NCBI RefSeq assembly: GCF_000829315.1
Contig: NZ_AP013028.1
Coordinates: 570,001 to 602,000, forward strand
Length of the DNA stretch: 32,000 nt
Direction of reading: 5' to 3'
Source of the DNA: Wolbachia endosymbiont of Cimex lectularius
Lineage (GTDB): Bacteria > Pseudomonadota > Alphaproteobacteria > Rickettsiales > Anaplasmataceae
Each line of letters begins with the position of its first letter. Positions within the stretch are counted from its first letter, which is position 1. The notes under the pieces are model-generated. The model saw only the letters and a list, made by a program, of their open reading frames with translations. It did not search any database and was not told the DNA's origin. Position numbers and translations under genes: made by a program. Positions 3,424 to 30,889 of the stretch are shown here, in pieces.

Positions 3424-3810
3424 ACCAATTTTCACTACACAGGAAGTGAATAGACAACAGTGGAAAAAAGTTATAACGTCATCCAATAGAGACGAAAAAA
3501 CTACTTGACAAATTCCAACAATTTCATTATTATAGTAGCAAGGGTATTTCTGACTCAAAACTTGTTTTTGATCTGCAGGCTCAATGACAAAATTCAGTAA
3601 AAAACTCAGGGTATTTTTTGGCGGATTGTATCAAATTATAGCGGCTGCATGTCTTTTTCATTTTTTCTACATTCAGCCAAATTGCGCTTGAACTAAGCGT
3701 CAGCAAATTATTATAGCGCCAATTTAAAGTATTATAGAGTCAAAACTCGCCACTCGGAATTTCTTTGTCTTTTTTTTGCTTGGTAAATTTCTTAAATATT
3801 TATTATCAAA
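3424..3810 (+). repeat. promoter-leader repeat module, copy A
   Basis: Collinear with 12130-12650, and from the promoter onward with 20195-20680. It has a shared upstream block (CACTACACAGRAAG..AGACAACAGT), the promoter core AAAAAACTACTTGACA, and a terminal subunit ending GGTAAATTTCTTAAATATTTAT. Confidence 0.75.
3505..3533 (+). promoter_or_regulatory. sigma70-like promoter TTGACA-N17-TATTAT (module copy A)
   Basis: Read directly, with an A-tract immediately upstream. It is oriented toward the terminase remnant. Confidence 0.5.
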
Positions 3811-3821
3811 GTAGTATTCCG

Positions 3822-3915
3822 AGTCCCAGTGTCAAGCACTGGAATGACAGGAGGGGGCCACTTTTATGACACCATCATAAAGGAACCAGTGTCCGCTACT
3901 TGGATAACAGGAGGC
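3822..3915. repeat. palindromic repeat elements (CCCAGTG..CACTGG/ATGACA family)
   Basis: Contains CCCAGTGTCAAGCACTGGAATGACA and CCAGTGTCCGCTACTTGGATAACA. The same family occurs at 5752-6082, 8696-8905, 12680-12706 and 23305-23692. Confidence 0.75.
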
Positions 3916-3918
3916 TAA

Positions 3919-4538
3919 TATGAAAACATAAACTTTCTAAAATTCATTGAGTTATGCTTTAAAATGGTGATGCCGGGATGTGAGTATAACGACTATCAAT
4001 ATATGAAAATCATAGCAGACAGGCTGGAAGCGACAAGTGCCAGTGAAGTGAGGCGCATAATATTCAATATGCCGCCGCGCTCGATGAAGTCCATGTGCGT
4101 CAGTGTTGCATGGCCCGCGTGGATACTGGGAAATCAACCAACTGCGAGAATAATAGTTGCAAGCTATTCTCAGCGGCTGAGCGAAAAGCACTCACTCGAC
4201 ACAAGGTGTATAATGCAGTCTGGTTGGTATAAGGAGCTATTTCCGGAGGTAGAACTATCCAAAGAGCAAAACACCAAATACAAATTTCAAACAGTGCAGA
4301 GAGGATACAGAATTGCAACATCTGTTGGTGGAACATTAACCGGTGAAGGCGGTGATTTCATTATCGTGGATGATCCACTGAGTTCAGTCCAAGCTTTGAG
4401 TGAAACGCTTAGAAAGCGTGCTACAAACTGGTTCGACCAGACTTTAGTAAGCAGGCTCAACAATAGAAAAAAAGGAGTTATTGTCCTTGTGATGTACAGG
4501 CTACATCAAGAGGACTTAACCGGACACCTTCTCTCTAA
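3919..4538 (+). pseudogene. phage terminase large subunit, ATPase-domain fragment, cut by IS insertion
   Basis: Walker-A-like PPRSMKS, Walker-B-like GGDFIIVDDP and the coupling-type motif YRLHQEDLTGHLL. The frame is open only from 3919, so there is no proper N-terminus. The frame is interrupted at 4538 by the IS. After the IS nest only about 23 more codons remain before a stop. Confidence 0.7.
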
Positions 4539-5398
4539 GAACCTGTTTAAAATCTTGGAAATGTGAGGTAAAGTAAGCATAGATTAATAATGAGGTGTCT
4601 ATGCAGAAAAGTTATCCAAGTAATATAAGTCAAGAGCAGTTTGAAAAAATCAGGCCAATTTTGGAGAGTAGCAAGCAGAAAACAAAACCAAGAAAACTTG
4701 ATTTGTATGATGTATTTTGTGGGGTGTTGTACGTCTTAAAAAGTGGTTGTCAGTGGAGGATGTTACCAAAGGGTTTTCCAAGATGGGAAAGCGTATATTA
4801 CTATTTTCGAGTGTGGAGTAAAAAGAATGGAGAAGAGCCAAGCTTGTTGGAATTAGTCTTAAAAAAAATTAGTTGGAGAGGTCCGTATCAGCAATGGTCG
4901 GAAAGAGAAAACTAGCTTTTGTATAATTGATTCTCAAAGCGTTAAAAACGCAGATACTGCTGAAAAAAAAGGCTATGATGCAGGTAAAAAGATTTCAGGG
5001 ATAAAGCGCCATATTGCAGTTGATACACAAGGTTTGCCACATGCAATTTATGTAACAACGGCAGAAGCAACTGACCGTAGCAGTGCTGTGAAAATGGTCG
5101 AAAATGCTAAAGCAAACCTCTCTGAAGTTAAAAACATACTGGTTGATGCTGGCTACACAGGAGAAAATTTTGCAACACAAATAAAAGCTATCATTGGTGC
5201 GACTGTTGAAGTAATAAAGCGAAGTGAGTTACACACTTTCGTCGTATTGCCAAAAAGATGGGTTGTTGAACGCTCTTTTGCCTGGTTAGAAAAGTGCAGG
5301 CGATTGTGGAAAAATTGCGAGCGGAAGCTCAACACTAGCTTACAGATGATAGTCCTCTCCTTCATTTCTCTCCTGTTACGAAGATTTTAAACAGGTTC
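4539..5398 (+). mobile_element. IS5-family insertion sequence, full copy 1 (860 bp)
   Basis: Terminal inverted repeats GAACCTGTTTAAAATCTT / AAGATTTTAAACAGGTTC, flanked by TAA at 4536-4538 and 5399-5401. Near-identical to the copies at 13022-13882 and 14357-15216. Confidence 0.9.
4601..5390 (+). CDS. IS5-family DDE transposase, orfA + orfB joined by a +1 shift in the A8 run at 4861-4868
   Basis: orfA (4601-4915) has the CQWRMLPKGFP motif typical of the IS4/IS5 N-terminal domain. The orfB frame opens exactly in the A8 run and reads LVGEVRISNGRKEKTSFCIIDSQSVKNADTAEKKGYDAGKKISGIKRHIAVD... through to 5390. Confidence 0.8.
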
Positions 5399-5401
5399 TA
5401 A

Positions 5402-5722
5402 GACTAATTCCAACAAGCTTGGCTCTTCTCCATTCTTTTTACTCCACACTCGAAAATAGTAATATACGCTTTCCCATCTTGGAAAACCCTTTGGTAACAT
5501 CCTCCACTGACAACCACTTTTTAAGACGTACAACACCCCACAAAATACGTCATACAAATCAAGTTTTCTTGGTTTTGTTTTCTGCTTGCTACTCTCCAAA
5601 ATTGGCCTGATTTTTTCAAACTGCTCTTGACTTATATTACTTGGATAACTTTTCTGCATAGACACCTCATTATTAATCTATGCTTACTTTACCTCACATT
5701 TCCAAGATTTTAAACAGGTTCT
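5402..5722 (-). mobile_element. truncated IS copy (left end plus 5' part of orfA only), inverted relative to copy 1
   Basis: Reverse complement of IS positions 1 to about 321, ending exactly at the GTCTTA that precedes the A8 run. The outer inverted repeat ends at 5722 and is followed by TAA. Confidence 0.85.
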
Positions 5723-5751
5723 AAGATTAATCTCTACCAGGAAGGATGTTA

Positions 5752-6082
5752 TGCCAGTGCCCAGACACTAGTATCCAGAAATTTTACCAAGTAGGTGAGC
5801 ATAAAAGTAGCTGTTTTATGTTAAAATATGACGTTTTGATGATTATGGAAAGGATGGATCCCAGTGCCGGAGCACTGGGATGACACCATCTGTTACGCAA
5901 ATTACCTGCTAATTGCAATGTTCGTACAGTTGTGTGTCAAGCACTGGAATGACAAGAAAAGGCTACTTGGATGACAAGAAGAGGATGCGCTGGAATGACA
6001 TCATAGGGATTAGGATGACAGGAAAAGGAGGCACTGGGACGATAGGAGGAGGGATGCATAACAGGAGGAGGGGTTACTTGGT
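5752..6082. repeat. cluster of palindromic elements plus a tandem ~22-bp half-palindrome array (5935-6082)
   Basis: Contains GGATCCCAGTGCCGGAGCACTGGGATGACACC. This is followed by repeated units of the form RCTGGRATGACA + purine-rich tail, about 7 units. Confidence 0.75.
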
Positions 6083-7967: not shown

Positions 7968-9506
7968 ATGCAACTGAACAAATACAAAAATCAAAATGTT
8001 GCGGTTTTTGGTCTTGGTAAAACTGGTTTGTCCGTTATTAACGCTCTAATGAAGAGCGGTGCAAGAATATATGCGTGGGATGATAACGAAGAGCAAATAG
8101 CAGATGCAAAAATGATGTATCGGGGGTGTAATTTTATTCATCCCAGAGAATATAATTGGCATGAAATAGGAACGTTGATTTTAAGCCCTGGAGTGCCAAT
8201 TTCATATCTAACGCCGCATTGGATAGTGAAACTTGCAAGAAGCGTTGACTGCAAAATAAAATCGGATATTGAGCTATTTCTTGAAACTAAAACTGCAAAT
8301 CAGAAGGTAATAGGTGTCACAGGAACAAATGGCAAGTCAACCACTGTGTCACTAATAGGGCACGTATTAAAATCTGCAGGGAAAAAGGTAGCTATTGGTG
8401 GAAATTTAGGTGTTCCTGTTTTGGAGCTAGAAAGAGATGCAGAAATTTATGTAATTGAGTTCTCCTCTTTTCAATTGGAGTTGATGAATGAAATTAACGT
8501 GGACATTGCAGTGTTGCTCAACATTACACCAGACCACATAGACAGACATGGAAGTATGGAGAATTATATAGCAACTAAATTGAAACTGATAAACGGTAGT
8601 GAGACTGCCGTGATAGGGTGTGGTAACAAAATTACCGCTGATGCATTCAACAAATTCACTGGGAACAAGATTCCAATTTTAGGGACATACTTTCCGGTGT
8701 CATTCCAGCGCGTGACGCTGGAATCCAGAAAAGAAAAACCACTGTCAGTTACTCAAATGATAGAGGGTGGTACAAGAGGTCTAATATCATTGATAGGTAA
8801 TAATTTGCTTGACTATAGTGAACAGATTACTGGTACAGAACAAAATTGCCTGGATCCCAGTGTCAGCTACTTGGATGACAAAAAAGGTGCTGCGATCCAG
8901 AAAAACTTGATAAAGTTAGAGAATTATAACTTATCAATAAATGACGTGAAAATAAACTTAACATCCAACGCAGAAAATATAGCAGCCGCATATACCGTAT
9001 GTAAGCTGCTTAAAATAGATAACAACACTATTATTGATGGAATCAAATCCTTTCCAGGTTTGAAACACAGAAATGAATTACTTGGCAAAATAGAAAATGT
9101 GTTTTTTGTGAACGATAGCAAAGCAACTAATGCCAAGTCGAGCGAACAAGCGATTTTGTCTTATAAAAACGTATATTGGATTGTTGGCGGAAGAAGTAAA
9201 GAAGGTGGCATAGAGTCACTAAGCAAGCACTTTACAAGAATTAGAAAAGCTTTTCTAATTGGAGAATCAACAGAAGCTTTTGCAAATGTTATGAAGAATA
9301 AAGTAGATTATATGAAGTGTTATGATCTAGAAAACGCATTTAAACTGGCTTTCGAAGAGGCCATAAATAGCAAAGAAGAAGTAACGATATTGCTTTCTCC
9401 TGCATGTTCTTCTTTTGATCAGTGGAAAAATTTTGAAGAACGAGGTGACACATTTTGCAGAATGTTTGAAAATCTCAGGTACAATTACATGTACTGTTTA
9501 GTATAA
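7968..9506 (+). CDS. murD: UDP-N-acetylmuramoylalanine--D-glutamate ligase carrying an in-frame repeat-element insertion
   Basis: Rossmann-like N-terminus GLGKTG and the Mur ligase P-loop GVTGTNGKSTT. At 512 aa it is longer than the usual ~440-450 aa because of the repeat segment at about 8696-8905. Confidence 0.85.
   Translation: MQLNKYKNQNVAVFGLGKTGLSVINALMKSGARIYAWDDNEEQIADAKMMYRGCNFIHPREYNWHEIGTLILSPGVPISYLTPHWIVKLARSVDCKIKSDIELFLETKTANQKVIGVTGTNGKSTTVSLIGHVLKSAGKKVAIGGNLGVPVLELERDAEIYVIEFSSFQLELMNEINVDIAVLLNITPDHIDRHGSMENYIATKLKLINGSETAVIGCGNKITADAFNKFTGNKIPILGTYFPVSFQRVTLESRKEKPLSVTQMIEGGTRGLISLIGNNLLDYSEQITGTEQNCLDPSVSYLDDKKGAAIQKNLIKLENYNLSINDVKINLTSNAENIAAAYTVCKLLKIDNNTIIDGIKSFPGLKHRNELLGKIENVFFVNDSKATNAKSSEQAILSYKNVYWIVGGRSKEGGIESLSKHFTRIRKAFLIGESTEAFANVMKNKVDYMKCYDLENAFKLAFEEAINSKEEVTILLSPACSSFDQWKNFEERGDTFCRMFENLRYNYMYCLV
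8696..8905. repeat. palindromic repeat element embedded in the murD reading frame
   Basis: GGTGTCATTCCAGCGCGTGACGCTGGAATCCAGAAAAG at one end and CTGGATCCCAGTGTCAGCTACTTGGATGACAAAAAAG at the other. Both belong to the intergenic repeat family seen elsewhere in the window. Confidence 0.7.
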
Positions 9507-9512
9507 TGTTGT

Positions 9513-10112
9513 ATGGAACAAGATGAAATAAAGTCAGTAGTAGACGAACTGATTAGGGTCATTCCATTTGAGGGGATAAGCGATGAAACCTTATTGAAAG
9601 TGTGCACGGACCTTAACCTAGCCAATAGCTTTTGCAAATTTCAAAATGGAATATACAGTGCTTTGGAGCATATAGCTGAGGACTTAAATAGTTCAATGGA
9701 AGCTGAGCTAATAAACTCCAATTTAGAAGATATGAAAGTGCGGGAGCGAGTAAAATTAGCTGTTCAAATACGCCTCTCAAACTACGCTAAACTACCAAAT
9801 TATAGAGAATTTTTAAAAAATGTTTTACTATTTTCTGTATTGCCAAAGAATACATACTTTTCTAGTAAACTCTTGTACAGAACTGTTAGTGCAATTTGGT
9901 ATGGCATCTACGATCAATCAACAGATTTTAATTACTATACAAAACGGGCAATATTAGCTGGGGTATATTTAAGCACAATGCTTTTCTTTATCAATGACTA
10001 CTCAGAAGGTTTTGCAGATACTCTATCATTTCTTGACAGACGTATCGACAACGTCATGGCATTTCAAAAGTTCAAAACTCGCTTAAAAGGAATTGTGGGA
10101 AGTTTCCTATAG
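9513..10112 (+). CDS. COQ9-family (rpsU-divergently-transcribed type) protein
   Basis: Matches the remembered COQ9 C-terminal pattern: AIWYGIYDQSTDFNYYTKRAIL...LSFLDRRIDNVM. Confidence 0.6.
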   Translation: MEQDEIKSVVDELIRVIPFEGISDETLLKVCTDLNLANSFCKFQNGIYSALEHIAEDLNSSMEAELINSNLEDMKVRERVKLAVQIRLSNYAKLPNYREFLKNVLLFSVLPKNTYFSSKLLYRTVSAIWYGIYDQSTDFNYYTKRAILAGVYLSTMLFFINDYSEGFADTLSFLDRRIDNVMAFQKFKTRLKGIVGSFL

Positions 10113-12129: not shown

Positions 12130-12650
12130 CCAATTCTCACTACACAGAAAGCGAACAGACAACAGTAGAGAAAGGCTACCCAACAGAAACAAAAAAACTA
12201 CTTGACAACCTTCGCCGTTACCCTTACAATGATACTGAAGCTATTTGTTTATCTTCGCAATCTGTGCAGGTTAATGACAAAAAACTTAGGGTATTTGGCG
12301 TCTCATGTTTAAATTTTTGCACTATGTGCACCTTACGTCTTTTTAAAACTTCTGGTTTTTACCTATACAAGCTGAAACGCGCTTATAAGTCGTTTAAGAC
12401 AGTATAGAACGTCAAATAGACAAGGGAGAATTTGAATACTAGCTGCCCTAGAGTTTTTTTGCCCTTTTTCCTGCTTAGTAAATTTCTTAACGTTTACAGT
12501 TTTGGTTATTTACATTTAAAAGTAGCTGAATCGTAGCGCTGAGAATAAAAATGCCGATATTTGAGGTACATATAAATAATTAGCCACCAACCGGGGCTTC
12601 TTTTGCTTTTTTTCTCCATTTTGTAAGTTTCTTAAACATTAAAGCAATTC
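12130..12650 (+). repeat. promoter-leader repeat module, copy B
   Basis: Collinear with 20195-20680 over about 450 bp and with 3424-3810. It contains two tandem subunits, 12409-12490 and 12547-12635. Confidence 0.8.
12202..12230 (+). promoter_or_regulatory. sigma70-like promoter TTGACA-N17-TACAAT (module copy B)
   Basis: Read directly and preceded by AAAAAAACTAC. It is oriented toward the ankyrin gene. Confidence 0.5.
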
Positions 12651-12679: not shown

Positions 12680-12706
12680 GGTGTCATTCCAGTGCGTGAC
12701 GCTTGT
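12680..12706. repeat. single palindromic element
   Basis: GGTGTCATTCCAGTGCGTGACGCTTG, the same family as at 8696 and 23311. Confidence 0.6.
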
Positions 12707-12783
12707 ATTTTTGTGGCTGTACATCAAAGCTCACAGATTATTAATAATCTTACTATAAAATATAATTTTATAAGAGATATGAG

Positions 12784-13021
12784 GTGAGCGTTTCAGATAC
12801 TGAGTTACTTGATGCTGCTAGAAACGGTAATATTGAGAAAGTAAAATATCTGATAAATGAAGGAGCAGATGTTGATACGCGAGATCAAGACTACAGTACT
12901 CCTTTACATTTGGCTGCTTACAATAGCCATACAGATACAGTAGAAGCTCTATTAAACGCAGAAGGAATCAATGTTAATGCGAAAGATAATAATGGATTAA
13001 TTCCTTTACATTTTGCCATTA
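12784..13021 (+). pseudogene. ankyrin-repeat protein, truncated by IS copy 2
   Basis: Two ankyrin repeats (TPLHLAAYNSHTDTVEALL, GLIPLHFAI). The frame runs directly into the IS inverted repeat at 13022. GTG start. Confidence 0.7.
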
Positions 13022-13882
13022 GAACCTGTTTAAAATCTTCGTAACAGGAGAGAAATGAAGGAGAGGACTATCATCTGTAAGCTAGTGTTGAGCTTCCGCT
13101 CGCAATTTTTCCACAATCGCCTGCACTTTTCTAACCAGGCAAAAGAGCGTTCAACAACCCATCTTTTTGGCAATACGACGAAAGTGTGTAACTCACTTCG
13201 CTTTATTACTTCAACAGTCGCACCAATGATAGCTTTTATTTGTGTTGCAAAATTTTCTCCTGTGTAGCCAGCATCAACCAGTATGTTTTTAACTTCAGAG
13301 AGGTTTGCTTTAGCATTTTCGACCATTTTCACAGCACTGCTACGGTCAGTTGCTTCTGCCGTTGTTACATAAATTGCATGTGGCAAACCTTGTGTATCAA
13401 CTGCAATATGGCGCTTTATCCCTGAAATCTTTTTACCTGCATCATAGCCTTTTTTTTTCAGCAGTATCTGCGTTTTTAACGCTTTGAGAATCAATTATAC
13501 AAAAGCTAGTTTTCTCTTTCCGACCATTGCTGATACGGACCTCTCCAACTAATTTTTTTTAAGACTAATTCCAACAAGCTTGGCTCTTCTCCACTCTTTT
13601 TACTCCACACTCGAAAATAGTAATATACGCTTTCCCATCTTGGAAAACCCTTTGGTAACATCCTCCACTGACAACCACTTTTTAAGACGTACAACACCCC
13701 ACAAAATACGTCATACAAATCAAGTTTTCTTGGTTTTGTTTTCTGCTTGCTACTCTCCAAAATTGGCCTGATTTTTTCAAACTGCTCTTGACTTATATTA
13801 CTTGGATAACTTTTCTGCATAGACACCTCATTATTAATCTATGCTTACTTTACCTCACATTTCCAAGATTTTAAACAGGTTC
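13022..13882 (-). mobile_element. IS5-family insertion sequence, full copy 2 (861 bp), flanked by TTA/TTA
   Basis: Same inverted repeats as copy 1. TTA occurs at 13019-13021 and 13883-13885. It is one nucleotide longer than copies 1 and 3 because of a T9 run (A9 in sense) at 13450-13458. Confidence 0.9.
13030..13820 (-). pseudogene. IS5-family transposase with an extra frameshift (A9 instead of A8 in the second A-tract)
   Basis: orfA is intact with one N-to-S change. The orfB frame entered from the A8 run is broken at the A9 run, so two shifts would be needed. Confidence 0.65.
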
Positions 13883-14356
13883 TTAGACGAAAGTTTATTT
13901 GGCAGCTTATTATCAGACTACTCTGGTACAAAGGTCGAAAAAGACGGACCGGTGTTGTCATTTGGAAGAGTGAATTTTTTCAGGTTTAGTTGTCCACCAA
14001 TTTTGGTTATAGACGTTTGCTTACGCGACCATTATGAACAAGCTTTTAGTAATGATGTATATTGTCTAGATGTAGCAGTACTTGGAGAAACAGAGCCTCA
14101 CACAAAGAATTATAAAGGTATTTATGAAAGAAATCATCAATGGTATAATTTCAAAACACTTTACCCTTTACCACAGAGTTTACTACCAGAAATTAAGTTT
14201 GCCAAAGCAGAGATAGTATTATCGGATAGTTGGAACTTAGGGGAAATAAATGCGTGTTTTCCGGTTACAAGTGTAGAAGAAACAGGGAATAAATTTGTAC
14301 TAGGAAGTGATAGACTATCTGAGCAACGTTGGAATTTAAAGTACGAGCCAATTTTA
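13883..14356 (+). pseudogene. internal fragment of an unknown gene, open across all 468 bp, cut at both ends by IS copies
   Basis: A single stop-free frame (LDESLFGS...NLKYEPIL) runs from one IS boundary to the other, which is unlikely by chance in AT-rich DNA. No motif is recognised. Confidence 0.5.
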
Positions 14357-15216
14357 GAACCTGTTTAAAATCTTGGAAATGTGAGGTAAAGTAAGCATAG
14401 ATTAATAATGAGGTGTCTATGCAGAAAAGTTATCCAAGTAATATAAGTCAAGAGCAGTTTGAAAAAATCAGGCCAATTTTGGAGAGTAGCAAGCAGAAAA
14501 CAAAACCAAGAAAACTTGATTTGTATGACGTATTTTGTGGGGTGTTGTACGTCTTAAAAAGTGGTTGTCAGTGGAGGATGTTACCAAAGGGTTTTCCAAG
14601 ATGGGAAAGCGTATATTACTATTTTCGAGTGTGGAGTAAAAAGAATGGAGAAGAGCCAAGCTTGTTGGAATTAGTCTTAAAAAAAATTAGTTGGAGAGGT
14701 CCGTATCAGCAATGGTCGGAAAGAGAAAACTAGCTTTTGTATAATTGATTCTCAAAGCGTTAAAAACGCAGATACTGCTGAAAAAAAAGGCTATGATGCA
14801 GGTAAAAAGATTTCAGGGATAAAGCGCCATATTGCAGTTGATACACAAGGTTTGCCACATGCAATTTATGTAACAACGGCAGAAGCAACTGACCGTAGCA
14901 GTGCTGTGAAAATGGTCGAAAATGCTAAAGCAAACCTCTCTGAAGTTAAAAACATACTGGTTGATGCTGGCTACACAGGAGAAAATTTTGCAACACAAAT
15001 AAAAGCTATCATTGGTGCGACTGTTGAAGTAATAAAGCGAAGTGAGTTACACACTTTCGTCGTATTGCCAAAAAGATGGGTTGTTGAACGCTCTTTTGCC
15101 TGGTTAGAAAAGTGCAGGCGATTGTGGAAAAATTGCGAGCGGAAGCTCAACACTAGCTTACAGATGATAGTCCTCTCCTTCATTTCTCTCCTGTTACGAA
15201 GATTTTAAACAGGTTC
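14357..15216 (+). mobile_element. IS5-family insertion sequence, full copy 3 (860 bp), flanked by TTA/TTA
   Basis: Same inverted repeats as the other copies. TTA occurs at 14354-14356 and 15217-15219. Confidence 0.9.
14419..15208 (+). CDS. IS5-family DDE transposase, orfA + orfB joined by a +1 shift in the A8 run at 14679-14686
   Basis: Codon-by-codon reading: the orfA frame gives TTA AAA AAA ATT AGT. The orfB frame starts TAA AAA AAA TTA GTT GGA and stays open to 15208. Confidence 0.8.
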
Positions 15217-15911
15217 TTATATGCAGCAAGATACTGGCTGTTAGATTCTGAATTGGGAATTTGCAAAAGATTTGATGGAATAGCTCCTCCATTATCTTTG
15301 CCAAAGCTACTACCAATATTGTGCCCTGATGGCCGTTCCTTTGGAGTATAATAAGCCTTTGGGTTCTCTATAAGTTTTTTCATCCGGCCACTGTATTCAA
15401 CTAGCACTTTTGTGACATCTGCTTTAGGCCACTCGGTCTTGCTGAACCACCACACAGCATTAACAGAATCTTTTACTCTGATTTTTCTCTTATTGACCCA
15501 TTCAATCGGACTTGGCAATTTAGAGGGATTATACCAATAGAAATCTTCTGCAAGGAAGAAGCCTATATCATCACAAAAATGCATAAGCACCCTAAAATTA
15601 TATAAACTCCTTGATGGCGCGCCTTTTTCATAAGCCCCACCTAAATCAAGCACAAAGCTGCCTGTATCTTTTAGTTTGCTGTGTACTAATTTTGCAAATT
15701 GGCTAAGCCATGAAACATATTCCGTTTGGGATTCATTTCCGTATTCTTTTTTTCTTTGCAAAGCAAACGGTGGACTGGTTATTACGAGATCCAAGCTATT
15801 ATCTGGTAATTGCGGCAATAGGTCAAGCGAGTCTTCACAATATGCAACTCCCATATCTGTAGTATATGTGGGTTTATTATTAAATTTAAAGTTTTCCAAT
15901 ATGTGTACCAT
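15217..15911 (-). pseudogene. beta-class N4/N6 DNA methyltransferase, 3'-truncated by IS copy 3
   Basis: Motif IV TSPPF lies near the N-terminus. The expected C-terminal AdoMet-binding motif I (FxGxG) is absent because the frame runs into the IS at 15217. Confidence 0.7.
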
Positions 15912-16217
15912 TGGAATTCTTGAATTTTACTGAATTGATTGGTAGTTTTAAGGCACCTGCTACTTAAATTTAGGTGCCCATTAAGTAGTTGGAAATAACA
16001 AACCGGTTCAGTTGCCTACCCCATAAGTTTGGTACTCCCTTTCAATCATAAGGTACCTTGCTGCTTGAAATATTTCCCTTGTAAAATTAAGTTACCTTTT
16101 ACATCAGCTTATTTAAGCTGCACTAGCACGTTTTGGCCTTTTGTAGATGAGTAATTCTCTAGGAATTATCCTATTGAATTCTATGATATTACTTTTTGTA
16201 TCATTGTACTCATTATC

Positions 16218-16246
16218 ATGATAAGGGTGTCGGCGGAGGTTGTCAA
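16218..16246 (-). promoter_or_regulatory. sigma70-like promoter TTGACA-N17-TATCAT (module copy D, promoter part only)
   Basis: The minus strand reads AAAAAAAACTACTTGACAACCTCCGCCGACACCCTTATCAT. The spacer is nearly identical to copy B. It is oriented toward the methyltransferase remnant. Confidence 0.5.
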
Positions 16247-16283
16247 GTAGTTTTTTTTGCCAACGCTGAAATTAGTAGGCAGC

Positions 16284-20194: not shown

Positions 20195-20680
20195 AAACAA
20201 AAAAACTACTTGACAAGTTCCTTCAACCCCCTTATAATGAGACTGAAGCTATTATTTATCTTCAGTCTGTGCAGATAAAATGACAAAAAACTCAATGTAC
20301 TTGGCGTCTCATGTTTAATTTTTTGCACTATGTGCACTCCATGTCTTCATAAAACTTCTAGGTTTTTACCTAATATAAGCTAAAATGCGCTTGCTAAAGC
20401 ATTTAAGACAATAAAAAACGCCAATTTAAAAGATAGATAGTGAATAACTAGCTAGTGGGGTTTCTTTTGCCTTTTGTCTGTTTAGTAAATTTCTTAATGT
20501 TTAAATTTAGATCAGTTGCGGTTTAAAAGCAGCTAGATTAGACGTTTAGAATAAAAAAACGCCAATTTATAAAGTTAATATAAATAATTAGCCACCGACG
20601 GGGCTTCTTTGCTTTTTTTTCTGTTTGGTAAATTTCTTAAATATTTATAGCTAAAGGTTAGTTGCAGTTTAAGATACAAT
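20195..20680 (+). repeat. promoter-leader repeat module, copy C
   Basis: Collinear with 12192-12650. It contains two tandem subunits, 20414-20497 and 20553-20640, with a period of about 139 bp. Confidence 0.8.
20210..20238 (+). promoter_or_regulatory. perfect consensus sigma70 promoter TTGACA-N17-TATAAT (module copy C)
   Basis: Read directly and preceded by AAAAAAACTAC. It lies 549 nt upstream of the fumC ATG. Confidence 0.6.
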
Positions 20681-20786
20681 ACAGTATGATTTAATTAACC
20701 AGAAAGTGGAGATATTAACATGAAAAACTTATGTAGCGAAACTGGATTACAGTTTCAGCTATTTGTATGACATCAAGGAGGAAGAT

Positions 20787-22178
20787 ATGGATAAAAAAAC
20801 CAGAACAGAATCAGACAGCTTGGGGGAAATAAAAGTACCAAGCGAACGTTATTGGGGAGCGCAAACACAGCGTTCTTTGGAAAATTTTAAAATTGGCACG
20901 GAAAAGATGCCAGAGCCTATAATTGAAGCATTAGCAATAGTAAAACTTGCAGCAGCACGTATGAATATGAAGCATAGTGCTATAGATGAAAAAGTAGGGA
21001 ATGCGATCTGCACAACTGCACAGGAGGTAATAGACGGCAAATTTAACGACGAATTTCCACTTGTCGTGTGGCAAACTGGATCTGGAACTCAAACCAACAT
21101 GAACATGAATGAAGTGATCAGTAATCGTGCAATAGAGATTTTGAGTGGCGATTTGGGCAGCAAGTCTCCAGTACACCCAAACGATCATGTGAACTTTGGC
21201 CAGTCATCAAATGACACTTTTCCAACAGCAATGCACATAGCAGCAGCAAAGCAGATAAATTGCTCTCTCATTCCAAGTCTTGAAGTGCTACATAAGGCAC
21301 TGAATGATAAGGTTCAGGAATTTAAAAATATAATAAAAGTAGGGCGTACTCATTTGCAAGATGCAACGCCTCTGACACTGGGACAGGAATTTTCTGGCCA
21401 TGCAGTTCAAATTAAAAAGGGAATAGAAAGAGTAAAATCAGCTCTGAACAATGTGTATGAACTTGCACAAGGTGGCACCGCGGTTGGTACGGGACTCAAT
21501 ACTAAAAAAGGCTTTGCTGAGGATTTTGCTAGAGAAGTGGCAGAAATTACCAATCTTCCATTTATTTCAGCAAAAAATAAATTTGAAGCATTAGCAGCAA
21601 ATGATGCTCTGGTTGAGCTAAGTGGAGCACTCAATACAGTAGCGGTCAGTTTAATGAAAATTGCAAATGATATAAGGTTGCTTGGTTCTGGTCCAAGGTG
21701 CGGAATTGGAGAAATAATCTTGCCAGAAAATGAGCCAGGTTCTTCAATTATGCCAGGTAAAGTGAATCCAACTCAATGTGAGGCAGTAACTATGGTATGT
21801 GCTCAAGTTATGGGAAATCATGTTACTGTAACCATCAGTGGTTCAAACGGCCATTTTGAACTAAACGTGTTTAAGCCAGTAATAATTTACAATGTTTTGC
21901 AGTCTATAAGACTTTTAGCTGACGCAAGTTTAAATTTCACAGAAAAATGTGTGATTGGCATTAAGGCAAATGAAAAGAGAATAAAAGATCTGCTGAATCA
22001 GTCATTAATGTTGGTCACTATATTAAATACGCATATAGGATATGATAATGCAGCAAAAATAGCCAAACTTGCTTACAAAGAAAATATCACCTTAAAGGAA
22101 GCGGCAGTGAAGCTTGAGCTGCTCACTGAAAAAGAGTTTGAAAGAATAGTAAAACCAGAAGAAATGGTAAATTTATAA
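20787..22178 (+). CDS. fumC: class II fumarate hydratase
   Basis: GSSxMPxKxN signature ([11 protein letters not shown]) and the N-terminal [12 protein letters not shown]...YWGAQTQRS. The ATG at 20787 is preceded by AAGGAGG. Confidence 0.95.
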
Positions 22179-23304: not shown

Positions 23305-23692
23305 ACCCTTTAGTGTCATTCCAGCGCGTGACGCACAACTGTACGAACATTGTGATTTGTAGGTAATTTGCGTAGCAGACATTGTCATTCCAGTGCGTAA
23401 TACTGGAATCCAGTTTTTTGTTAATTTCATCGAAAATGTTGTGTAGTGCGCTTGTTTACGATCAATTTTTCTGGATCCCAGTGTCTCGCTACTTGGATGA
23501 CACCCTCCTGCTAGTCTCAAACCACAATGCTCGTACAGTTGTGCACGTGACACTGGAATCCAGAAAAAAAAGAAAACAGGTTCCAGTGTCATGCACTGGA
23601 ATGATAGGAGATAATGCAAGAAACCTATTGGTTTGCAAAATAGATCCCAGTGTCGGAGCACTGGGATGACACCTTGGAGTTTCTGGGATAAC
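23305..23692. repeat. dense cluster of palindromic elements
   Basis: At least five hairpin units (for example TTCCAGCGCGTGACG, CCCAGTGTCGGAGCACTGGGATGACACC). A ~75-bp core at 23320-23395 is the reverse complement of 5876-5950. Confidence 0.8.
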
Positions 23693-27890: not shown

Positions 27891-27964
27891 TTAATAAAAA
27901 TCTCTAATTCAATAAATTCAATTTAATATTTAACACTGCATATGCACACATAGAAAGCAAATAA

Positions 27965-30745
<2,781 letters not shown>

Positions 30746-30803
30746 TTACTCGACTATATGCAGAATATGCAGAGTTAAATATTATTGGAATTGAATTGAG
30801 ATT

Positions 30804-30860: not shown

Positions 30861-30889
30861 ATGTTAGAAACTAATAAGCAATATGTCAA
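30861..30889 (-). promoter_or_regulatory. candidate distal rRNA promoter TTGACA-N17-TAACAT
   Basis: The minus strand reads AAAAAAGCATTGACATATTGCTTATTAGTTTCTAACAT, about 115 nt upstream of the mature 23S 5' end. Confidence 0.4.

Follow-up and report, generated by a model that had tools for sequence, protein, structure and literature searches.

A repeated element led by a promoter

The 32,000-nucleotide stretch of Wolbachia DNA analyzed here (positions 570,001 to 602,000 of contig NZ_AP013028.1, from the endosymbiont of Cimex lectularius; hereafter the window) is supergroup-F-like. Its fumC gene is 96% identical to fumC of the Mansonella ozzardi symbiont (wMoz), which we take to belong to supergroup F, and ~90% identical to supergroup A fumC; the exact FumC protein is present on Wolbachia-like contigs at NCBI. 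Four homologous promoter sites are flanked by core genes (tpiA, rsmD-like, recJ, alpha/beta hydrolase, fumC), among which prophage fragments (terminase, tail, DNA methyltransferase, ankyrin) are interspersed. As judged from alignments, the sites lead a repeated, non-coding element of ~450-530 bp that occurs in supergroups A, B and F. In the window, copies A, B and C are complete and copy D is split. The element is probably a promoter-led repeat which gives rise to orphan transcripts, apparently provides a target for the integration of phage WO, and does not serve the genes next to it.

The pattern TTGACA-N17-TAnnAT occurs five times in the window, versus 0.15 occurrences expected from shuffled sequences. 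Four of the sites, at 3505-3533 (+), 12202-12230 (+), 20210-20238 (+) and 16246-16218 (-), are homologous, as described earlier, and all have the TTGACA and TAnnAT hexamers and the 17-nucleotide (nt) spacer of sigma-70 promoters; copy C matches 12, and copy B 11, of the 12 consensus positions. The copy A promoter (3494-3533, + strand) is made up of an A-tract, CTAC, the -35 box TTGACA (3505-3510), the 17-nt spacer and the -10 box TATTAT (3528-3533). The copy B promoter (12191-12230, + strand) has its -35 box TTGACA at 12202-12207 and its -10 box TACAAT at 12225-12230, and the copy C promoter (20199-20238, + strand) has TTGACA at 20210-20215 and TATAAT at 20233-20238. Copy D (16208-16257, - strand) is the promoter half of a split element, with the -35 box at 16246-16241 and the -10 box TATCAT at 16223-16218. 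The lead-in said to precede all four sites, AAAAAAACTAC, is matched exactly by B, C and D, whereas copy A has GAAAAAACTAC, which differs at one position. The fifth site, TTGACA-N17-TAACAT at 30861-30889 (-), precedes the 23S rRNA gene (27957-30747, minus strand) by ~114 nt. This site gave no profile match in the nhmmer search of the window, does not belong to the family, and is probably the promoter of the 23S-5S operon. A promoter in an unrelated IMG/VR phage contig (L088, 1831-1868, - strand) is identical to that of copy A at 33 of 39 positions, GAAAAAACTACTTGACAAATT included, a likeness which is probably due to convergence on a strong UP-element promoter, aided by the search pattern itself.

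In the preliminary description the sites were seen as a dispersed, possibly mobile promoter cassette of ~45 bp, which would insert upstream of genes and rewire their expression. The high conservation of the hexamers and the nature of copy D, which is the promoter core alone, fit such a cassette. The shared ancestry of the sites holds, and reaches beyond the spacers. B (12187-12640) and C (20195-20645) are 78% identical across 463 bp; A (3425-3795) aligns to B (12130-12490) at 61%, and is a diverged member; D and B share just 48 bp (16257-16210 against 12191-12238, 87.5% identity). A profile made from 12 full element copies was used with nhmmer on the window, and hit exactly four sites, with E values of 6e-149, 9e-118, 5e-24 (copy A, over 3483-3800) and 5e-9; copy D covers model positions 13-60 only. 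In A, B and C homology continues ~410 nt beyond the promoter, and a unit of 45 bp is not borne out.

In an alignment of 12 complete copies, from the window and from metagenome contigs, the element features, in order, an optional extension of ~70 bp, the promoter (A-tract, CTAC, TTGACA, 17 nt, TATCAT or TATAAT), a leader of ~170 nt, and one or two T-rich units of ~145 bp, each opening with AAAACGCCAA and closing with a T-rich stretch followed by GGTAAATTTCTTAA. The extension (CCAATTTTCACTACACAGG...CCAATAGAGAC) spans 3425-3493 (+) in copy A and is homologous to the one at 12130-12190 (+) in copy B; it was also found in the metagenome copies L135, L163, L172 and L176. The body predicted to be transcribed spans 3540-3806 (+) in copy A, a member of the diverged subfamily with one T-rich unit ending in GGTAAATTTCTTAAATATTTA, and 12237-12640 (+) in copy B, where the ~170 nt leader is followed by two units. 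In copy C, as delimited by the profile match and by homology to B, it spans 20245-20672 (+). The tandem units of copy C (20381-20526 and 20524-20672) are 72% identical, and were not reported by Tandem Repeats Finder, run on the window, most likely because they are too divergent. Upstream of fumC there are two units in the window and exactly one in wMoz, so that the units behave like a variable-number tandem repeat (VNTR). In the leader, TTGGCGT is the exact complement of the ACGCCAA opening each unit, and 11 aligned copies preserve the pairing, with changes from G-C to G-U (12316-12322 with 12405-12411 in copy B; 20324-20330 with 20416-20422 and 20559-20565 in copy C).

The family is dispersed and of high copy number, as had been proposed. 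When JGI metagenome contigs were scanned for a 25-base motif of the leader, 45 contigs were retrieved, most broken inside the element. With a GC content of 36.3%, and 81-88% of nucleotides identical to supergroup A/B loci across more than 1 kb, these contigs are Wolbachia DNA. About two thirds of the motif matches (32/48) are ~110 nt or less from a contig end, and in many contigs both ends carry the element, the expected effect of a high-copy repeat on short-read assembly. In at least one lineage, multiplication of the element has gone far enough to break the assembly every few kilobases. Among 53 distinct promoter variants (two from the window, 51 from metagenome contigs, most of one sample) the -35 box is TTGACA in 51, and the -10 box is TATCAT, TATTAT or TATAAT in 51; several spacer positions are just 50-60% conserved, the hexamers far more so. 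Between wMel and the window, the first 100 transcribed nt are 90-94% identical, and the 50 nt of the promoter ~70%. Across supergroups A and F the leader is conserved no less than the beginning of the fumC coding region (88%), and conservation of hexamers and leader fits selection or gene conversion acting on both. That the transcribed part (~91%) is better conserved between these supergroups than the promoter spacer (~70%) speaks against a cassette in which the promoter is the moving part.

Transcription and neighboring genes

Start sites of transcription have been mapped by Cappable-seq in wMelPop-CLA (on the wMel reference genome) and in wAlbB (PMC12558409). The supplementary tables of that study, which give 50 nt upstream and 100 nt downstream of each start site, were searched with family motifs. 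Four wMel records are of the B/C type (oTSS_-_131390, oTSS_-_528421, iTSSps_+_1067756 and iTSS_+_713865), and all of them feature TTGACA-N17-TATCAT upstream and GAAGCTA downstream. The first 100 nt of copy B, which has the same GAAGCTA start, are 91% identical to the transcript of oTSS_-_528421, located in the hemC/sucB intergenic region, and the first 100 nt of copy C are 91-94% identical to wMel transcripts with mapped starts. In wAlbB, oTSS_+_1119165 is an A-type start site, its first 100 nt being 84.5% identical to copy A, and oTSS_-_1469961 a D-type start site, with a transcript 85.4% identical to copy D. In the homologues of all three transcript types the mapped starts lie 6-9 nt past the -10 box; most are classed as orphan, i.e., assigned to no gene. 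The sites are therefore very likely functional promoters, as the preliminary description had it, and judging from these homologues the promoters of the element are almost certainly active. In the window, transcription would start at ~3540 (A), 12237 (B), 20245 (C) and ~16210 (D), RNA polymerase beginning, in the GAAGCTA copies B and C, at the G residue 6 nt past the -10 box. Each element would be a transcription unit of its own, making an orphan non-coding RNA.

In the aligned element copies no open reading frame (ORF) keeps its frame or length, and substitutions do not follow a three-base period. Small proteins (MTKNLGYLASHV, or a 38-aa ORF in one subfamily) were discarded: frame and length shift, one subfamily lacks the ATG, and codon periodicity is missing. 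On this evidence the transcript is non-coding. It may still be functional. A family of trans-acting small or medium-sized RNAs, with the ~170 nt leader as the functional RNA and copy number setting its dose, would account for active orphan start sites in two strains, for a leader which varies no more between supergroups A and F (90-94% identity) than the fumC coding start does (88%), and for the use of the locus as a phage attachment site, as is often the case with tRNA and tmRNA genes. However, no Rfam family matches the element in the window at the gathering threshold, and none of note matches copy C even at E = 10. Folding is no better than that of shuffled sequences (z = -0.31 and -1.63), and the consensus fold (-11.4 kcal/mol) has a covariation term of +0.53, i.e., no covariation support; a structured small RNA was rejected on these grounds. 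A clear terminator is missing, complementarity to other parts of the window was not detected, and both wMoz copies have apparently dead promoters. We hold a trans-acting role to be unlikely.

The wMoz copies (L131, 5651-5351 on the - strand and 9562-9885 on the + strand) share the same 6-bp shortening of the spacer, to 11 nt, which should probably inactivate the promoter. The common change suggests gene conversion between the copies, or a defective subfamily.

In the window each of the four copies points the same way as the ORF that follows it, which had led to the view that each is aimed at the gene downstream. This holds locally and not for the family. Outside the window, 26 copies have an ORF of at least 100 aa (taken as a proxy for a gene) within 1 kb downstream, 13 co-oriented and 13 opposed, which is the random orientation that the preliminary description had itself named as counterevidence; upstream ORFs count 36 to 24 (p = 0.16). 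A truncated copy in wRi is directed into the 3' end of rnhB. Three of the four supposed targets are gene fragments. Copy A is followed by a partial terminase large-subunit gene (3964-4566, + strand; phrog_4758, E = 7e-52), prophage debris cut at 4538 by an IS5-family element; copy B by an 86-aa ankyrin-repeat fragment (12784-13044, + strand; Pfam Ank families) cut by the insertion sequence (IS) at 13019-13900; copy D by a DNA methyltransferase fragment (15180-15911, - strand; partial match to Pfam N6_N4_Mtase, phrog_67). The even split in the family and the fragmentary targets mark the four-out-of-four co-orientation as a small-sample coincidence, a caution for methods, as the local pattern falsely suggested gene targeting.

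The one intact target is fumC (20787-22178, + strand; class II fumarate hydratase, Pfam Lyase_1 and FumaraseC_C), which adjoins copy C. This gene appears to keep a conserved proximal promoter of its own (20690-20701, + strand), with the -10 box TTTAAT at 20690-20695 and a predicted start at ~20701. The segment GTATGATTTAATTAAC is also conserved in wMel, in which pTSS_-_473553 has been mapped to a position 59 nt ahead of the fumC ATG, and homology between supergroups F and A resumes at 20683, directly past the end of the element. Rewiring of downstream genes is thus not borne out, given the 13:13 orientation, three targets that are fragments, and a fourth with its own promoter, for which a start is mapped in wMel. 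The family orientation largely refutes the mobile cassette, and we regard that explanation as very improbable.

At single sites the element might nonetheless act in cis, its promoter reading through to supplement or replace the native one at fumC. The native -35 region of fumC now abuts the end of the element; the -35 box TTGACT of wMel has no counterpart, the window reading GTTTAA at 20667-20672; there is no strong terminator between 20245 and fumC; and wMoz has the same arrangement as the window strain. On the other hand, the wMoz element upstream of fumC has the 11-nt spacer and hence a probably dead promoter, yet the region proximal to fumC differs hardly at all; moreover, supergroup A and B strains express or encode fumC in the absence of the element. 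Such a use at fumC is doubtful. According to the favored interpretation, the position of the element would be independent of neighboring genes, and any effect on them would come by read-through. A 7-bp hairpin followed by a T-rich tail (20738-20756, + strand) falls inside the predicted fumC 5' untranslated region (UTR), and is absent from the shorter 5' UTR of wMel.

Copy D and the proposed integration of phage WO

Copy D begins 26 nt past the recJ stop codon. In wMoz the same recJ flank (96% identical) is followed by a complete, intact element. In the window the likeness of copy D to the element ends after TATCATGAT, and the next 50-90 nt match phage WO. The shared core, TCATGAT, is at 16221-16215 and overlaps the -10 box. 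The phage-derived DNA joined to the promoter (16159-16214, - strand) is homologous to the gwv_1089 side of the phage attachment site (attP) of WOVitA1; it is 92% identical to positions 15880-15928 of the WOVitA1 record KX522565, which fall within the 3' end of the recombinase gene, and 80% identical to the last bases of the WOVitB prophage record.

In an alignment of D with WOVitA1, WOVitB and wMoz, phage homology starts at CATGAT. The end of WOVitB reads promoter, ATGAT, phage DNA, exactly as copy D does, and in the packaged WOVitA1 genome the recombinase coding sequence precedes the same CATGAT. A further junction of the D type was found in the metagenome contig L145. The wAlbB record oTSS_-_1469961 also shows one, though it was not aligned across the break, and as this is a mapped orphan start the D-type junction is transcribed in that strain. 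The end of D hence coincides with the phage attachment breakpoint in four independent sequences, the wAlbB one unaligned, and a promoter-only copy that had moved as a cassette is not borne out, the breakpoint at the -10 box being that of phage WO integration. The breakpoints in D, in L145 and at the end of WOVitB, along with the wAlbB record, support D as a junction of the attL type, which would be the remnant of an integration that later decayed.

Published accounts of WOVitA1 place attP between the recombinase gene and gwv_1089, call the bacterial attachment site (attB) 'a non-coding, repetitive sequence', and report that sr2WO phages (reference WOVitA1) integrate into VNTR-105 (PMC5062602, PMC9203015). 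The primer VitA1_attF sits just upstream of the breakpoint in our alignment. Matching attB and VNTR-105 by their published descriptions, we infer that the WOVitA1-type attB is the element described here, with the core TCATGAT lying over the -10 box. Predicted attB would span TTATCATGAT and, next to it, ACTGAAGC, and predicted attR would consist of the recombinase 3' end, TCATGAT and ACTGAAGCTATT. Integration of a WOVitA1 (sr2WO)-type phage would split the promoter from the RNA body, and aim the promoter into the prophage end. Copy B was ruled out as the partner half of the prophage of D, being complete and oppositely oriented.

The junctions lend themselves to a further explanation, in which the element is a true multi-copy RNA gene, phage WO having evolved to integrate at its -10/+1 region; integration would then act as a promoter-capture switch, and the copies as landing pads or decoys. 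The captured strong promoter would fire into the prophage end, antisense to gwv_1089-type genes, with the RNA body now fused to the recombinase gene, and expression would be tied to the state of integration. If so, chromosomal copies would shape the spread of WO and genome rearrangement. We consider this improbable, much as we do a trans-acting RNA.

Two truncated elements, L163 6739-6835 (-) and L129 4001-4091 (+), keep the promoter and end shortly after AATGACAA in the leader; the L129 stump retains ~50 transcribed nt. The L163 stump adjoins, in inverted orientation, the 3' end of a recombinase gene 67-77% identical to that of WOVitA1, and may mark a second phage attachment point in the same element.

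Mode of spread and relation to known repeats

Several observations weigh against an orphan-transcribed repeat targeted by phage WO. The start sites in the window are predicted from wMel and wAlbB homologues, that is, from other strains. The wMel and wAlbB copies reach 34-69 counts per million (c.p.m.), whereas the median given for primary start sites linked to genes is 111-135; expression of the repeats is probably undercounted, because multi-mapping reads were excluded (PMC12558409). No intrinsic terminator was called inside the elements, and unit hairpins before T-runs are weak (-6 to -7.5 kcal/mol in unit 2, negligible in unit 1), so that read-through into neighbors may occur. The reciprocal junction (recombinase 3' end joined to a promoterless element body) is present in no fetched sequence, the material searched including phage records cut at their ends and a decayed prophage in the window. 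The family may have been wrongly equated with wMel VNTR-105, the match being made on the published description and not on a sequence alignment. A scan of 185,579 species representatives with an exact promoter pattern, specified at 22 bases and matching all four window copies, found no Wolbachia, which is unexpected for so widespread a family; the two matches obtained are both unrelated, and an overly strict pattern or masking of the sequences may be the reason. Terminal inverted repeats were not found, the inverted-repeat search of A, B and C giving A/T-run matches only and nothing shared at the ends. Neither target duplication nor a shared left-flank motif is evident among the copies compared.

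The last two observations bear also on a non-autonomous element similar to a miniature inverted-repeat transposable element (MITE), mobilized by a transposase acting in trans, the promoter being incidental or serving the element. Being small, non-coding and multi-copy (~450-530 bp, 51 metagenome variants), the repeat has the general appearance of such an element. At least 51 distinct copies were seen in metagenome contigs, most from one sample; assemblies break within the element; copies are located at gene-order breaks (the window versus wMoz at recJ; L170 versus L169); and the wMel genome paper reports unclassified multi-copy families with hallmarks of mobile elements. Yet copies share no terminal inverted repeats, which argued against a MITE, neither target-site duplication nor common motif is evident at the left boundary, and 5' extent differs between copies. 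No clean pair of filled and empty sites was found among the fetched loci, flank comparisons showing rearrangements at the elements. Spread of the MITE type is rather unlikely, if somewhat less so than the trans-acting RNA. A single-stranded DNA element of the IS200/IS605 type was rejected, as the left flanks have no common target motif. Among WO records in the phage collection searched, none has the element body; the hits are sequences next to attachment sites and one truncated copy of 91 bp, in a wRi record labelled 'phage' but in fact chromosomal. A scan of viral contigs with a loose promoter pattern yielded unrelated phage contigs among the matches listed, and further scans gave chance matches or nothing.

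Most likely the element is selfish or neutral, with selection or gene conversion preserving its promoter and leader. Correia elements of Neisseria, and other small dispersed repeats with promoters, are of a comparable kind. Correia elements are ~100-155 bp long, end in terminal inverted repeats of 26 bp and give rise to TA target duplications; they are high-copy, intergenic, non-coding repeats with functional sigma-70 promoters, which can produce transcripts unrelated to gene positions. The Wolbachia element is likewise high-copy, non-coding, intergenic and promoter-carrying. It differs in size (~450-530 bp), in lacking terminal inverted repeats, and in having one 5' promoter of fixed orientation and a long conserved transcribed body. 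Rickettsia palindromic elements (RPEs) and REP-like palindromes are also selfish-looking repeats which proliferated in Rickettsiales, but they are palindromic and 30-150 bp long, whereas this element is non-palindromic and promoter-led. RPEs can also insert within genes. As with tRNA and tmRNA attachment sites, a phage integrase or recombinase would target a conserved, transcribed, non-coding host locus; here, however, the apparent crossover is at the -10 box and not in the 3' part of an RNA gene, the phage leaves the locus unrestored, and the target is a multi-copy repeat.

Parts of the element are already published under other names, as VNTR loci, as a repetitive attB and as orphan start sites. 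The VNTR-105 and VNTR-141 loci and the WOVitA1 attB, as described by Riegler in 2012 (PMC3287509) and by Bordenstein in 2016 (PMC5062602) and 2022 (PMC9203015), are non-coding, intergenic and repeated within the genome. VNTR-105 and VNTR-141, compared here by description, have units of ~105-145 bp, varying in number by strain; the likeness to the WOVitA1 attB lies in the element being joined to WOVitA1-type phage ends where attP lies. The passages in question present the loci as markers for typing or as the place of phage attachment, and describe neither a transcript nor a dispersed family; the keyword 'promoter' is absent from PMC3287509 and PMC9203015. The candidate small RNAs ncrwmel01/02 and WsnRNA-46/59 (PMC4349823, PMC12558409, Rfam RF02625) are intergenic transcripts with start sites of their own. 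Homologues of the element appear alongside in the lists of orphan start sites, and one of them maps to the hemC/sucB intergenic region, which Woolfit et al. chose for 5' rapid amplification of cDNA ends (PMC4349823). Unlike ncrwmel01/02, described at single intergenic loci in Table 4 of that paper, the element is multi-copy and has no Rfam match. PMC4349823 and PMC12558409 do not group these start sites into a family, and no prior description of the family was found in the open-access literature. The WOVitA1-type attB, some orphan start sites and strain-variable intergenic repeats appear to be one object; judging from that literature, the connection between them and the position of the attachment core over the -10 box seem not to have been reported before.

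Wolbachia cannot yet be transformed, and the serine recombinase of phage WO, with its attachment sites, is seen as a route to transformation. If the interpretation put forward here is correct, the element copies would be candidate natural landing sites, with the apparent core TCATGAT, and would offer a compact native promoter for constructs; discarding multi-mapping reads would hide a whole class of Wolbachia transcripts.

Other repeats are found in the window. Three copies of one IS5-family insertion sequence, at 4538-5740 (+), 13019-13900 (-) and 14354-15235 (+), interrupt the terminase, ankyrin, tail (13841-14368) and methyltransferase fragments; the transposase of this insertion sequence is split into ORFs of 106 and 118 aa. 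Rfam matches in the window are to 23S and 5S rRNA, tRNA-Thr and the Wolbachia small RNA family WsnRNA46. The WsnRNA46 match (23365-23521, minus strand) is composed of REP-like palindromes. Such palindromes (e.g., CCAGTGTCAAGCACTGG) form several repeat families, at 23314-23673, 3823-3913, 5854-5976, 8698-8884 and 12682-12712, and palindromes or hairpins of this kind are often located directly 3' of the promoter-bearing element.

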